Assembly: GCA_038231455.1 (NCBI GenBank)
Contig: JBBRLI010000004.1
Coordinates: 140,928-204,927, forward strand
Reading direction: 5' to 3'
Length of the DNA stretch: 64,000 nucleotides
Source of the DNA: Vulcanimicrobiales bacterium
GTDB lineage: Bacteria > Vulcanimicrobiota > Vulcanimicrobiia > Vulcanimicrobiales > Vulcanimicrobiaceae
Positions 6,427-60,763 of this stretch are shown one piece after another. Both the position numbers and the translations under genes were made by a program. Position 1 is the first letter of the stretch; each line of letters opens with the position of its first letter. The notes beneath the pieces are model-generated. The model was not told the origin of the DNA and did not search any database. It saw nothing but the letters and a program-made list of their open reading frames with translations.

Positions 6427-7263
6427 TTAGCGTCGTCCTCCGAAGAGCTTCTCGAAGAACGTGGGTTCTTGCGGAATCTCCGGCTTGGAAGTATCGGTAC
6501 CGGCGATGCGCCCGGCGATCGCGCGAAACGACGCGCCCGTGCGCGAGGTATCGTCGTTCGCAAGCGGCTCGCCGCGATTGGTGGAAACGATGACGTCGGG
6601 TTCATCGGCGATCACGCCAAGCAGCGGCAGTCGAAGAATGGCATTCACATCCTCGACCGAGAGCATCTTGCCTTTTTTCACGAGCGCCGGGCGGATGCGA
6701 TTGATGATGAGTTGCACCTTCATCGCATTCCCCAGCAGTCCGACGACGCGATCGGCATCGCGCACGGCGGAGACTTCCGGCGTACAGACGATGATCGCTT
6801 CTTCGGCACCGACGATCGCGTTTTGAAATCCGGCCTCGATACCCGCAGGACAGTCAATGATCACGTAGTCGAATTTGTCGCGCAAACGTTCGACGAGCGC
6901 CTTCATTTGCGCGGTATCGACTTCGTCTTTTTCGCGCGTCTGCGCTGCGGCAAGCAACTGCAGCGAGGGCACGCGCTTGTCGATGACGAGTGCTTCTTCG
7001 AGCGTCGCTTTTTCTTCAAGCACGTCGAGCACGTGACTGCGAACGCGATTCTCTAAGCCGAGAACGATATCCAAATTCCGGAGACCGACATCTGCGTCGA
7101 TCAAGACGACGCGCGCGCCGGTGCGCGCGAGTGCCGTGCCGAGATTCGCGGTCGTCGTCGTCTTGCCGACGCCGCCTTTCCCGGAGGTAACGACGATTGC
7201 GCGACCGCGCGGCTTTGGAACGGAAGCGGCGACGGCCGCATTCTGCGGAGTCATCTCTTGCAT
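6427..7263 (-). CDS. minD: Septum site-determining ATPase MinD, paralog 2
   Basis: SGKGGVGKTT, DADVGLRNLD, DCPAGIE, C-terminal FFEKLFG amphipathic helix. Confidence 0.93.
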   Translation of the reverse strand: MQEMTPQNAAVAASVPKPRGRAIVVTSGKGGVGKTTTTANLGTALARTGARVVLIDADVGLRNLDIVLGLENRVRSHVLDVLEEKATLEEALVIDKRVPSLQLLAAAQTREKDEVDTAQMKALVERLRDKFDYVIIDCPAGIEAGFQNAIVGAEEAIIVCTPEVSAVRDADRVVGLLGNAMKVQLIINRIRPALVKKGKMLSVEDVNAILRLPLLGVIADEPDVIVSTNRGEPLANDDTSRTGASFRAIAGRIAGTDTSKPEIPQEPTFFEKLFGGRR

Positions 7264-7266
7264 CGG

Positions 7267-8058
7267 TCAGCCTGCCTTAAACGCGCTCATGATCCGGCCG
7301 AAGAAGCCGGGGGCGCTTAGATTCGTGAACGGAATGAGTTCGCCGTCGAGTCGGCGCGCGATCTTATCGTAAATCGGTGCGAGATGATTGTTCGGATCGA
7401 GGACGATCGGCTCGCCCCGGTTGGTCGTGTCGATGACTTCTTCATCGTCGGGAACGATACCAAGCAACTCAGCGGAGAGAATGTCGCATACATCTTCGAC
7501 CGACATCATATCGCCATTACGCACCATCTCGGGGCGAATGCGATTGACGATCAGGCGAATCGGAACGCCGCGTTCGTGCAGCTTGCCGATCACGCGATCC
7601 GCATCGCGAATCGCACTGACTTCGGGCGTGGTGACGACGATTGCTTCAAGTGCGCCCGCGATCGCGCTGCGGAACCCGTGTTCGATGCCGGCCGGGCAAT
7701 CGATGAGCACGTAGTCGCAGAGTTCGGCGAGTTCTTCGACGACCTTGGCCATCTGCAGTTCGCTCACAGCGCCTTTGTCGCGCGTTTGCGCTGCGGGCAG
7801 AATCGAGAGCGATTCAAAGCGTTTGTCTTTGATGAGCGCTTGACGCAATTGGCAGCGCCCTTCAACGACTTCCACCAGATCGAAGACGATGCGCTTCTCA
7901 ACGCCCAGAACGAGGTCGAGATTCCGTAAACCGATATCCGCATCGACGAGCACGACCCGTTTGCCGCGCTGCGCGAGAGCCGCTCCAAGGTTCGCGGTGG
8001 TCGTGGTTTTACCGACGCCGCCTTTGCCGGAGGTGAGAACGATCCGCCGGCCGCTCAT
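7267..8058 (-). CDS. minD: Septum site-determining ATPase MinD, paralog 1
   Basis: SGKGGVGKTT, DADIGLRNLD, C-terminal GFFGRIMSAF helix. Confidence 0.93.
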   Translation of the reverse strand: MSGRRIVLTSGKGGVGKTTTTANLGAALAQRGKRVVLVDADIGLRNLDLVLGVEKRIVFDLVEVVEGRCQLRQALIKDKRFESLSILPAAQTRDKGAVSELQMAKVVEELAELCDYVLIDCPAGIEHGFRSAIAGALEAIVVTTPEVSAIRDADRVIGKLHERGVPIRLIVNRIRPEMVRNGDMMSVEDVCDILSAELLGIVPDDEEVIDTTNRGEPIVLDPNNHLAPIYDKIARRLDGELIPFTNLSAPGFFGRIMSAFKAG

Positions 8059-8906
8059 CGGGCCTGCTCCCGCTGCGGAAACGAGGCTTCGGCGTGCGGC
8101 ACGACGACGATCCGGCCGTTGTCGATATACGCTTGCTCGGGGACACTCGTCTTGCGCGGCTCGCCCGCATCGGCCGCGATCACCGTCGCGATGCGAAGCT
8201 GCGTCGGCGCGAGCTCGAGCGCGATCACGCGCGACTGCGCATCACCTTGCGCGCCGGCGTGCGCGACGCCGCGCATCGACCCGAAGACGAGGATATCACC
8301 GCTAGCGATCAATTCGGCGCCCGGGTTCACATCGCCGATCACCACGATATTGCCGAGGTTGTGAAGCGCCTGACCGCCCCGGAGCGTACCGCGGTGGTAG
8401 AGCGTCGATACGCCCGCGGGCGCGGCGATCGGGATTGGCGGGATCACGACGGAGCTGGGGGCGGCGACCGTGGCACGGACGGCTTCGCGCTGAATGCGGC
8501 GTTCGGCGAGATCCTGACGGGCGCCGGCAAAGTCGGCCACGAGCGAGCGCGCGGCATCGGAGAGCACGACCGTCTTTTCGCCGCGGTTCTTGCGCACCGG
8601 CAGCGGCGCGACATCGGCGATCGGCGGCGTTCCTAAATAGGAGAGTTCCAGACCTTCGACGATCTCGCCGAGCTGCGCGGGGCCGTAAACGCCGTCGAGC
8701 ACGATGCCGTAATTTCCGAGGAACGTGCGAAACGTTGCGAGCGCCGCAGCGTCGGATTCGAGCGTCCCCAGGTTCGCCGTGGCGCGGCTACCGCGGTAAA
8801 AGTCGGGGCGATCGGCAAACTGCGCGCGCAAATCCTCAGCCGCCTCGAGCAGCGGCCGGTCTACCGTGATCTCCAAAACTCGGCCTCGGCCGCGAACTGT
8901 CGTCAT
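8055..8906 (-). CDS. minC: Septum site-determining protein MinC
   Basis: LRGGQ...GDVNPGAELIASGDILVFGSMRGVAHAG beta-helix motif. Confidence 0.92.
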   Translation of the reverse strand: MTTVRGRGRVLEITVDRPLLEAAEDLRAQFADRPDFYRGSRATANLGTLESDAAALATFRTFLGNYGIVLDGVYGPAQLGEIVEGLELSYLGTPPIADVAPLPVRKNRGEKTVVLSDAARSLVADFAGARQDLAERRIQREAVRATVAAPSSVVIPPIPIAAPAGVSTLYHRGTLRGGQALHNLGNIVVIGDVNPGAELIASGDILVFGSMRGVAHAGAQGDAQSRVIALELAPTQLRIATVIAADAGEPRKTSVPEQAYIDNGRIVVVPHAEASFPQREQAR

Positions 8907-23397: not shown

Positions 23398-23578
23398 CAC
23401 CCAAAGTTCGGGAACCGCCACACCCAACCCCACAAGGAACCCCGAACAACAAGCCCAGAGAAAACGCCGCACCGCAGGTGTCTGAACTCCCCCTCAGGGC
23501 TTGGGTTTTCTCGCTACCAACCCTCACCGGCGTTGCCGAACGGGCTTATGAGGAAGCCGCAGATCGAGATCGTGCCTA

Positions 23579-23750
23579 GCGGCTACGGGTGGGGTTTCTG
23601 GCGGGGTGTCTGAGCTTTTCGCGGAGCGTGTTGGCCCAGCGTAGGCTGGGACAACTCATCAGGATGGCGGGAGCGAAAAGTCAGCAAGTAGGCTTTTCCC
23701 AAGGATGGGAAAAGCCGGGCGCCCCCGCCAGAAACCCCACCCGTAGCCGC
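23579..23750 (+). repeat. Long-armed structured palindromic element, copy E1
   Basis: Perfect 28-bp inverted arms 23579-23606/23723-23750 enclosing multiple hairpins; homologous to 58855-58996. Confidence 0.85.
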
Positions 23751-23886
23751 AAGCCCCAACCCAATCAGCCGAAACCCAGCCACGTTTGGCAGAGTATACC
23801 AAGGGGTACCCTCCAACCAAGCCCACTCCTAACTTTGCGCTCATGTTATGACCGCGAAGCTCTTGTATCCTCAGAGTTATACAATT

Positions 23887-58612: not shown

Positions 58613-58774
58613 TATATATAAAAGGTTAGTCGTACTAGCAGTAACGCGGTGAGCAACGGGGACAAGTCGGGATCCCCAATTACGACAGCACGATGCGCCT
58701 TTTTTCGGTTGTGGATGAATCACACGATCCATCCTCGTCCTAAACAGAGGCCGCGCGAAACCCCATTATCCACG
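58613..58774. other. oriC right half: DnaA boxes, DnaA-trios and AT-rich unwinding element
   Basis: Minus strand TTGTCCCCG TTGCTCACC GCG TTA CTG CTA GTA CGA CTA ACC TTTTATATATA; further boxes at 58710 and 58766. Confidence 0.85.
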
Positions 58775-58854
58775 TTTGAAGCCCCACCCTGTGAGGCGTT
58801 CGGTACAACTCTGTGGGTTTGGTTTTCGATGGGCTCTTTTGGTGATTGTAGCTG

Positions 58855-58996
58855 GCGGGTGGGGGGACGTGTTGCCGGTGGGGACGCCCGCATTTTTACG
58901 TCGTGTAAAAATGCTACTTGCCGACTTTTCGCTCTCGCCAATCCTGGCTTCGCGAAAAGCTCGGACACCCCACCGGCAACACATCCCCCCACCCGC
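58855..58996 (-). repeat. Long-armed structured palindromic element, copy E2
   Basis: 29-bp inverted arms (one mismatch, a G-U pair on the minus strand) 58855-58883/58968-58996; core homologous to E1. Confidence 0.85.
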
Positions 58997-59082
58997 GAGG
59001 CACGATGCATATAAAACGAAACCGCCCAGCATTGTGCTGGGCGTAACGATCGTGGCGTGCATTCAAGGTTAATGGTGCGCGT

Positions 59083-60586: not shown

Positions 60587-60763
60587 TTATGCACTTATCC
60601 ACAGGGCTATAAACAGGCAAAAGTCCTTGATTTTACGAGGTTTTCCGCGGGTTATCCGCAAGGCAAAAGTAGCCCTAAATGGGGCAGGAGTCCTCGTCGT
60701 GCGGTCGATTGCGGCGCACCCGTGCGACCGGTTCTCCACAGGCTTGTCCACCGATGTGGAAAA
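60587..60763. promoter_or_regulatory. DnaA-box cluster upstream of dnaA (oriC left half / autoregulation)
   Basis: TTATCCACA 60595, TTATCCGCA 60652, TTCTCCACA 60732, TTGTCCACC 60744, TGTGGAAAA 60755. Confidence 0.85.

Follow-up and report, generated by a model that had tools for sequence, protein, structure and literature searches.

Two hairpins in the origin region of a Vulcanimicrobiales genome belong to a previously undescribed, lineage-specific family of dispersed repeats

The window analyzed here is a 64-kb stretch (64,000 nucleotides of contig JBBRLI010000004.1) from the 3.7-Mb genome of a Vulcanimicrobiales bacterium (G000 in our numbering). It carries two long hairpin elements, E1 and E2. 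E1, on the plus strand, lies between dnaX and recQ. E2, on the minus strand, sits in the spacer that separates the dnaA stop (59083) from the dnaN start (58577). Otherwise the window holds ordinary origin-region genes. The Eremiobacterota/Vulcanimicrobiota (formerly WPS-2), to which the organism belongs, are a soil phylum known mostly from metagenomes. A first-pass annotation had described E1 (23579-23750) and E2 (58855-58996) as one structured element, present twice beside replication genes, and the two sequences are as it wrote them. We find that E1 and E2 are members of a previously undescribed, lineage-specific family of dispersed hairpin repeats. The family is intergenic and has three unusual traits: free arms around a conserved core, covariation of the grade seen in structured RNA, and no known mover.

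E1 and E2 each fold as one long hairpin that is far more stable than shuffled sequence. The fold of E1 has an energy of -119.6 kcal/mol (z = -10.1) and that of E2 an energy of -106.4 kcal/mol (z = -13.8), and for each element 0 of 200 shuffles were equally stable. Both have the same layout: an outer stem of 28-29 bp, a stem P2 with the loop CAGGAU(G)G and a GA-rich internal loop, AGTAG, a stem P3, and CGGGCG(T/C) (Table 1). The details on which the earlier description rested were recovered. These are the covarying pair CTGA/TCAG versus CCGA/TCGG, a last hairpin whose sequence differs between E1 and E2 while its pairing is restored, the linkers CAAGTAG and CGGGCG, kept in both, and CGGGTGGGG, common to the arms of both. 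Of the two, E1 alone carries an extra 32-nt hairpin. The extents given for the elements hold for the hairpins; within the genus, however, conservation goes about 10 nt beyond either end, and the units are therefore longer, as listed in Table 1. The genus-specific flanks of the unit are ATCGTGCC on the 5' side and AGCCACAA on the 3' side, and other genera have different flanks in place of ATCGTGCC. While listing this 8-mer we also met a conserved stretch some 60 nt long that occurs twice, at G000:C50:2698 and 6848; both copies start ATCGTGCCCCC and contain GAGGAG...GAAAA.GGTTAGCGC.

Across the family, the unit is about 160 nt long, or about 190 nt with the optional extra hairpin. An outer stem of 28-45 bp, free in sequence, closes a conserved three-way core with P2 and P3. 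The core loops of P2 and P3 read A(N)GGAU(G) and the junctions AGUAG and CGGGCGU. Across genera the stems turn over fully. What is retained is the apex of P2 (GGAGCCAGGATGGCGRGAG), the junction AGTAG, the loop of P3 and GGGCGTCCCC; in most copies the P3 loop is C-A(N)GGAU-G. The sister species (G001) lacks the 32-nt hairpin in its ortholog of E1. The repeat unit has no coding capacity. A small peptide starting at the loop AUG was considered and rejected on reading the copies, since the codons downstream of it belong to the stem, which is free in sequence, and since an AUG is lacking in some loops. A K-turn in the P2 internal loop was also considered, and its consensus could not be fitted (judged by eye only).

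Table 1. Positions of the two elements and their parts in the window
Feature	Position	Strand	Details
E1, whole unit	23569..23759	+	191 nt, long form; covariance model R1 match G000:C4:164496-164686, 162 bits, E 3.7e-36
E1, 5' flank ATCGTGCC	23569..23576	+	(Near-)invariant in 8 aligned own copies; this genus only
E1, outer stem 5' arm, 28 nt, G-rich	23579..23606	+	Minimum free energy fold
E1, P2 5' strand TGTCTGAGCTTTTCGC and 5' side of GA-rich internal loop, GGAGC	23607..23627	+	Fold
E1, optional 32-nt extra hairpin in P2 apical loop	23628..23659	+	In 3/10 own copies, nowhere else in genome
E1, P2 apical loop (AGGAU 23661-23665), internal loop 3' side GGGAG, P2 3' strand	23660..23686	+	Sequence, fold
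E1, junction AGTAG between P2 and P3	23687..23691	+	Kept across genera as (G/A)AGTAG
E1, P3, 9-bp stem with hexaloop AAGGAU (23701-23706)	23692..23715	+	Fold
E1, junction CGGGCGC and C-rich outer stem 3' arm	23716..23750	+	Fold, covariation
E1, 3' flank AAGCCCCAA (genus consensus AGCCACAA)	23751..23759	+	Aligned own copies
E2, whole unit	58846..59006	-	161 nt, short form; covariance model R1 match G000:C4:199773-199933, 170.5 bits, E 3.1e-38
E2, outer stem 5' arm, 29 nt	58968..58996	-	Fold
E2, P2, apical loop CAGGAUUGGC	58919..58967	-	Fold
E2, P3, loop ACGAC, without GGA	58891..58913	-	Fold
E2, outer stem 3' arm, 29 nt	58855..58883	-	Fold

RNAalifold on eight copies from the window genome gave 62 pairs, 37 of them with compensatory changes. 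Over 51 copies from many genera, 95.3% of the cells pair, compared to 59.2% in column shuffles, and pairing drops to 36.5-48.3% when the partners are slid by 1-3 columns. Double changes occur in 57 of the 58 pairs, and the covariation score of 0.865 (vs. 0.178) was reached by 0 of 500 shuffles. All columns of the outer stem (helices 1-3) covary, and double changes are found in 14/14 pairs of P2 (helix 4) and 11/11 pairs of P3 (helix 7). The 51-copy alignment was fitted to the model, which favors structure; the margin is nevertheless very large. Orthologous copies also change in this way. The sister species has E1 and E2 at corresponding sites, in two aligned regions of 83-84% DNA identity, and the orthologs show paired changes in the outer stem (CTACGGG/CCCGTAG vs. 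CCGGGGG/CCCCCGA) and in P3. The fold is under strong compensatory selection, also between these sister-species orthologs.

The fold has a preferred strand. The first-pass annotation had argued from G-U pairs that E1(+)/E2(-) is the folded strand, and this was borne out on 54 copies, whose strand we assigned from the asymmetric core, not from wobble pairs. The modeled strand is more stable than its complement in 47 of the 54, with a mean difference of 7.3 kcal/mol, and it carries 159 G-U pairs compared to 43 on the complement. One position is U-G in 26/51 copies. This strand bias fits RNA, a folded DNA strand of fixed polarity, or strand-biased C-to-T mutation, but not a plain double-stranded signal.

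No known RNA family accounts for the fold. Nothing in the 64-kb window reached the gathering threshold of any Rfam 15 family. When E values up to 10 were allowed, both regions drew only sub-threshold microRNA-precursor models, on both strands, with a best score of 44.3 bits against a gathering score of 72. Such scores are what any long hairpin gives. With compensatory selection, a preferred strand and no Rfam match, the earlier suggestion of a selected RNA or single-stranded DNA structure stands.

The element is not confined to two places. BLAST of E1 against its own genome returned seven places. The covariance model R1, built from the eight own copies, raised this to ten full copies, on contigs C1, C3, C4 (two), C9, C10 (two), C11, C12 and C31, together with the first 27 bases of a further copy at the end of contig C86 and a 22-nt remnant at C1:214460. 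The copies are all intergenic. Besides E1 and E2, the other eight adjoin gcvP/NUDIX, beta-lactamase/CofH-like, pdxT/HNH, ogt/pcp, gatA/tRNA methyltransferase, glnA/Vgb-lyase-like, thiC/phosphoesterase and FtsX-like permease/anti-sigma kinase genes. Because these eight flank unrelated housekeeping genes, the link to replication genes drawn in the first-pass annotation does not hold. The nearness of E1 and E2 to replication genes is a coincidence, and nothing ties the family to them.

The location of E1 and E2 invites the explanation that they serve chromosome replication as a DNA structural signal, for example as a primosome site, a site of single-strand initiation or a portion of the origin. 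E2 sits in the dnaA-dnaN spacer with two DnaA-box-like 9-mers at a distance of 80-140 nt, and E1 sits between dnaX and recQ. Apart from the eight further copies, four observations oppose such a role. In the complete 3.0-Mb genome G005, the dnaA-dnaN gap is about 156 nt shorter than in the window genome and no element match is listed there. The dnaA-dnaN spacers of G017, G019 and G003 are also without a listed match. The dnaX-recQ spacers measure about 150-180 nt in G005 and G017, compared to about 530 nt in the window genome. Finally, the orientation of the copies in G005 is independent of replication direction (15+/12- and 9+/4- on the two replichores). We regard a replication signal as close to refuted.

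The window has seven DnaA-box-like 9-mers (TTATCCACA, at most one mismatch), an unremarkable total, as 7 of 100 shuffles reach seven matches. Six of them cluster around dnaA (58710-58774 and 60595-60763), four upstream of dnaA and two between E2 and dnaN, and mark the origin region. Elsewhere in the window, two adjacent minD paralogs followed by minC lie at 6427-8906 on the minus strand.

The family is widespread within one lineage. The model matched in 25 of 41 close relatives (by family, f1 17/24, f2 5/5 and f3 2/11); tallies on these 41 include the unpublished genomes G009, G020 and G022. The first-pass annotation had held that a lack of further homologs and of significant covariation would weaken the case for function; in a phylum-wide sample of 151 genomes, 54 had homologs. 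When the window genome is left out of this sample, the carriers are 51/71 in f1, 1/1 in f2, 1/9 in f3 and 0/69 in 18 other families. Carriers in the phylum sample are thus confined to three related families. Matches per genome range from 0 to 54, and G005 has copies at 40 or more distinct places.

A search for a 19-nt core motif in 185,579 species genomes gave at least 121 stretches. Among the 80 stretches listed, which come mostly from metagenome-assembled genomes of this phylum, nearly all are labeled Vulcanimicrobiota or Candidatus Eremiobacterota, with labels that include Cybelea, Aquilonibacter, Elarobacter, Lustribacter, Velthaea and Vulcanimicrobiaceae. The covariance model was run on 33 of the 19-mer loci, and taxon labels are as in the records. 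Model-confirmed copies were also found in records labeled Binatia, Krumholzibacteriia, Acidiferrales, Babeliales, Limnocylindria and Pirellulales, and five 19-mer matches in records labeled with other taxa had no model match. Plasmid and phage collections had no match to E1. Viral contigs gave one exact match to the 19-nt core, which we take as chance because it had no model match. Literature on Eremiobacterota with CsrA, or with repeats or noncoding RNA, gave no description of the family.

The first-pass annotation had proposed either a new noncoding RNA motif or a repeat resembling repetitive extragenic palindromic (REP) sequences or MITEs (transposable elements of the miniature inverted-repeat type), served by an enzyme encoded elsewhere. 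It had reported the window to be free of transposase and reverse transcriptase genes, and no such name or domain was found among the 46 called genes scanned (39 by NCBIfam and 7 by Pfam, the latter among 25 proteins). Genome-wide, the search for transposases and reverse transcriptases covered two families, PF01797 (Y1/RAYT transposase) and PF00078 (RVT_1). PF01797 is present in 6 of the 41 genomes; among the 25 that bear the element, only G015, G031 and G035 have it. It was not found in the copy-rich genomes G000, G001, G003, G005, G017 and G019. G005 had no first-look candidates for this domain, and two candidates in G000 were scored, neither of which matched. RVT_1 is present in 2/41 genomes, G003 (partial) and G015, and was not found in G000, G001, G005, G017 or G019. 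The 40 genes flanking 23 copies in G005 contain no mobility domain. What stands of the earlier proposal is a noncoding, dispersed, multi-copy repeat without an adjoining mobility gene. The RAYT part does not stand, with RAYT in 3/25 carriers, none of them copy-rich.

The ends of the element were no more typical of known movers. The longest direct repeat between the 12-nt flanks averaged 3.09 nt over 54 copies, compared to 3.03 nt for mismatched flank pairs, so no target duplication was detected with the stem ends as boundaries; a duplication outside these could be missed. The ends are conserved within a genus only (ATCGTGCC...AGCCACAA in G000/G001, GGTAGCG...CGCGGGCC in G005), and no terminal inverted repeat is conserved across genera. 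With RAYT and RVT_1 genes found in few of the genomes, ends conserved only within genera and no target duplication seen, the family fails the defining tests of REPIN/RAYT systems, classical MITEs and retroelements.

In size and setting the family resembles the ERIC/IRU and Correia/NEMIS repeats. As described in sections of PMC2229807, these are also noncoding, intergenic and multi-copy, about 100-200 bp long, with transcripts that fold to long stem-loops. Size variants by an internal insert occur in both (Correia 107 or 155 bp, the present family 160 or 192 nt), and the mode of movement is unproven there too, according to the same sections (PMC2229807). ERIC/IRU and Correia/NEMIS are there characterized as A+T-rich, with TA ends, terminal inverted repeats of conserved sequence, and duplication of the target (PMC2229807, in part). 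In contrast, the present family is 59-75% G+C, with free arms, a conserved center and no target duplication.

REP sequences and REPINs are likewise hairpin-forming extragenic repeats, and the present family also has head-to-head doublets: adjacent pairs less than 1 kb apart comprise 14 head-to-head, 0 tail-to-tail and 3 tandem cases (n = 17). GTAG heads REP sequences, and in G005 copies it precedes both the outer stem and P3. In a REPIN, however, a pair of conserved REP arms encloses a spacer that varies, while the present family has variable arms and a conserved center. REPINs persist by vertical descent, according to parts of two reports (PMC3337134; bioRxiv 10.1101/2021.07.10.451892). The RAYT gene that defines REP/REPIN systems was, as described above, not found in the copy-rich element genomes. 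Integron attC sites are strand-specific, folded single-stranded sites whose structure is kept while their sequence varies. They have conserved boxes at the ends and a variable center, the reverse of the present family, and occur in cassette arrays next to an integrase gene. Copies of the present family stand singly among housekeeping genes, and the flanking genes scanned included no integrase; attC boxes were not modeled.

The family multiplies and decays as DNA, through subfamilies, partial tandem arrays, in-place inversions and truncated remnants. In G005 the copies form subfamilies of near-identical members that share nearly the whole outer stem, so the outer stem is copied along with the rest of the unit and does not come from the target. 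These stem-plus-core subfamilies rule out the idea that the outer stem is a pre-existing terminator or an inverted copy of the target. Upstream of hrcA in G005 (L110:2235-2662), three extra tandem 78-nt units precede a full copy. Each joins the 16-nt 5' flank to the element's left half, which extends to GGAGCCA and breaks off at the P2 loop, the same loop that holds the 32-nt insert of E1. G000 and G001 share five sites (E1, E2, C31, C11 and C1), and two more sites retain nothing but 5'-truncated remnants in G001. A G005 copy is inserted between lpxA and lpxB, which are adjacent genes in the window genome. In this spacer the element is inverted in place between G005 (L116:2501-2656) and the congeneric G151 (L261:2345-2505), with matching arm ends. 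The gcvP-scpA spacer also holds the element in opposite orientations in G000 and G005. A second short repeat, approximately GCTCACCCTTCGACGGGCTCAGG, is often found just 3' of the element in G005 (L099, L102, L103, L104, L110, L112), and some copies have it upstream as well; it could represent a separate repeat family or a favored target.

This behavior makes a non-autonomous mobile element the main rival explanation. Here the element would act as folded single-stranded DNA, cut and joined by an enzyme encoded elsewhere, and its RNA would have no role. The models are REP/REPIN-RAYT, the ends of IS200/IS605 and integron attC, in which structure is conserved and not sequence. The copy-number range from 0 to at least 40 places, the near-identical G005 subfamilies, copies at contig ends, the truncated remnants at two sites in G001, the lpxA-lpxB insertion and the in-place inversion between two species would all be expected of such an element. 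The G005 tandem left halves break at the same P2 loop that takes the 32-nt insert, and GTAG stands before the outer stem and P3. A wobble bias is equally expected for G-T pairs in DNA, and no promoter or terminator belonging to the element was found. Against this, the analysis found no candidate enzyme (no PF01797 or RVT_1 match in G005 or G000), no mobility gene beside the 23 G005 copies, no cross-genus terminal inverted repeat and no target duplication. The G005 copies also lack an orientation bias relative to replication, by the counts given above. In addition, five or more copies have kept their positions since the G000/G001 split, and the aligned E1 and E2 orthologs keep their fold by compensation, which argues for selection beyond competence for transposition. 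We consider a mobile element acting as folded single-stranded DNA possible, but less likely than not.

A third explanation is a host cis-acting RNA hairpin, of the kind proposed for ERIC and Correia elements, that is co-transcribed with neighboring genes and works as a 3'-end protector, a terminator or a site for RNase III or RNase E. Its core would be conserved merely because the copies are young or homogenized by gene conversion. We called neighbor genes with our own codon log-likelihood caller, trained on the window genome. A convergent gene follows the 3' end of the element in 38/53 cases, its stop codon often only 5-15 nt away, while the 5' spacers are longer. The upstream gene reads into the element in 30/53 cases. 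These positions, and the restriction to intergenic sites, would suit a cis-acting hairpin. Perfect stems of 28-45 bp would be substrates of RNase III, and the window has an RNase E/G gene. Gene conversion is suggested by the identical 32-nt insert in three otherwise diverged copies and by a 14-mer shared between the E2 stem of G001 and copy C11 of G000. However, the loops, junctions and internal loop are kept over an order-level clade while the stems turn over, and a plain terminator or protector needs no conserved core. The wobble strand is often not the strand transcribed by the abutting gene. Furthermore, there is no U-tract, and dnaA has its own terminator ahead of E2. A cis-acting hairpin of this kind is to us an improbable explanation.

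Taken by appearance, the conserved loops, the GA-rich internal loop and the frequent U-G position look RNA-like, and the copy dynamics look DNA-like. Our preferred reading, which we hold tentatively and at slightly less than even confidence, is a dispersed repeat, specific to this lineage, that is under selection as a single strand, probably RNA, to which a protein docks. The selected strand would be of fixed polarity (E1 +, E2 -), with RNA its most likely form. For the form alone, we give RNA about an even chance and single-stranded DNA a clearly smaller one, and leave a minor share to other forms. The conserved loops and the internal loop would be the docking sites, and the best candidate for the protein would be CsrA, a GGA-binding regulator.

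The suggestion of CsrA comes from the loops and from co-occurrence. Of 54 copies, 44 have GGA in the P3 loop; the P2 loop could be read by script in 50 of them, and 39 of these 50 have GGA there. E1 has further GGA triplets in its internal loop, and E2 has a single GGA. Units carry 2-5 GGA, and there are up to dozens of units per genome. The CsrA consensus obtained by SELEX (systematic ligand evolution through exponential enrichment) is RUACARGGAUGU, with GGA in a hexaloop, and one dimer bridges sites 10-63 nt apart, as stated in sections of PMC7652899. Measured against these sections, the E1 P3 loop C-AAGGAU-G is the core CARGGAUG of the consensus, and the E1 GGA triplets (23662, 23703) start 41 nt apart, inside the bridging range (PMC7652899).

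In the phylum sample, csrA is present in 53/54 element-bearing genomes compared to 33/97 element-free genomes. Within family f3 the element occurs in 2/4 csrA-positive and 0/7 csrA-negative genomes. Carrier genomes have the FliW-CsrA-flagellin module; in the window genome, csrA is at G000:C58:3206-3508. In four genomes from two families (G010, G012, G025, G026) a copy lies 115-190 nt upstream of flgF, the head of a flgF...flgL-fliW-csrA string, and in G035 csrA has a copy 2.7 kb away. In G010 the leader of the flagellin gene contains a hairpin with GGA in its loop as well as a GGAGGA ribosome-binding site, and a comparable pair of sites in the hag leader of Bacillus subtilis binds CsrA. On these grounds, CsrA of the FliW-CsrA-flagellin module would be the best candidate partner, an identification that we consider improbable.

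The same region of G010 provided some further observations. At L122:12291-13412 it has two tandem fliW genes, followed by csrA and the flagellin gene. Sigma-28-like promoters (TAAA-N15-GCCGATAA type) precede the flagellin gene and flgF. In the window genome (G000:C16:6500-9400), genes that from their reading frames appear to be Ser/Thr-kinase-like and glycosyltransferase-like lie between fliE and flgF; the fliE-flgF spacer of G010 has an element copy instead of those genes. The element was also considered as a leader of the flgF-csrA operon. This idea is weakened, as the G010 promoter intervenes and the window genome has no copy upstream of flgF.

Several observations weigh against the preferred reading. 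No promoter ahead of E1 or E2 came up in a simple sigma-70 scan, dnaA is separated from E2 by a canonical terminator with a T-run (59023-59043, minus strand), and no U-tract follows the E1 or E2 hairpin. (This dnaA terminator is missing from the aligned stretch of the sister species.) The opposite orientations at lpxA-lpxB mean that orientation relative to outside promoters is not fixed. Read-through of the convergent 3' genes, found in 38/53 cases, would carry the complement of the element. The strand bias cannot settle RNA versus DNA, because G-T wobble or C-to-T mutation gives the same bias. The range from 0 to at least 40 places in a complete 3.0-Mb genome, with many copies at contig ends, fits selfish DNA better than a gene family.

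As for CsrA itself, G141 (96% complete), G024 (85%) and G009 (75%) carry copies, and csrA and fliW were not found in them, a statement that for G009 concerns an unpublished genome. Copies read from G141 and G024 keep their GGA loops. Some loops are ACGAU or ACGAC without GGA, including the P3 loop of E2. The P3 stem has 9-11 bp, compared to at most 4 pairs in most SELEX hairpins, in the sections of PMC7652899 used here. The element is absent in 17/68 csrA-positive f1 genomes, and the association with csrA is confounded by ancestry. Finally, the sigma-28-like promoter of G010 lies between the element and flgF, so the element there is not the leader of the flgF operon.

If the partner were CsrA, the nearest known systems would be the Csr/Rsm small RNAs (CsrB, RsmY/Z). 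The likeness lies in the loop GGA, the CARGGAUG core, the bridging distance and carriers that are nearly all csrA-positive. Known Csr small RNAs, as portrayed in sections of PMC7652899, are single genes with many GGA sites, in Gammaproteobacteria with BarA-UvrY, and fliW is anti-correlated with the BarA-UvrY system. The present family differs in having up to dozens of units per genome, long stable stems and a FliW-type lineage. One speculative version, which we think rather improbable, is that the repeats are invertible, self-multiplying small-RNA genes that titrate CsrA in a lineage where FliW otherwise controls CsrA. If this were true, the capacity to sequester CsrA would be set by copy number and by the orientation of the copies relative to transcription. 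It would be the first RNA antagonist of CsrA outside systems of the BarA-UvrY type, and its carrier would be a mobile repeat for whose movement no transposase is known.

Whatever its partner, the family inverts the usual logic of bacterial repeats, with free ends and a conserved center, and it appears to have spread without the enzymes known to move such repeats. The family therefore points to either a new structured RNA with a protein partner or a new kind of DNA-hairpin movement. Because copies lie at contig ends, the family breaks assemblies of metagenome-assembled genomes, and the covariance model would improve the annotation of such genomes in the Eremiobacterota/Vulcanimicrobiota.

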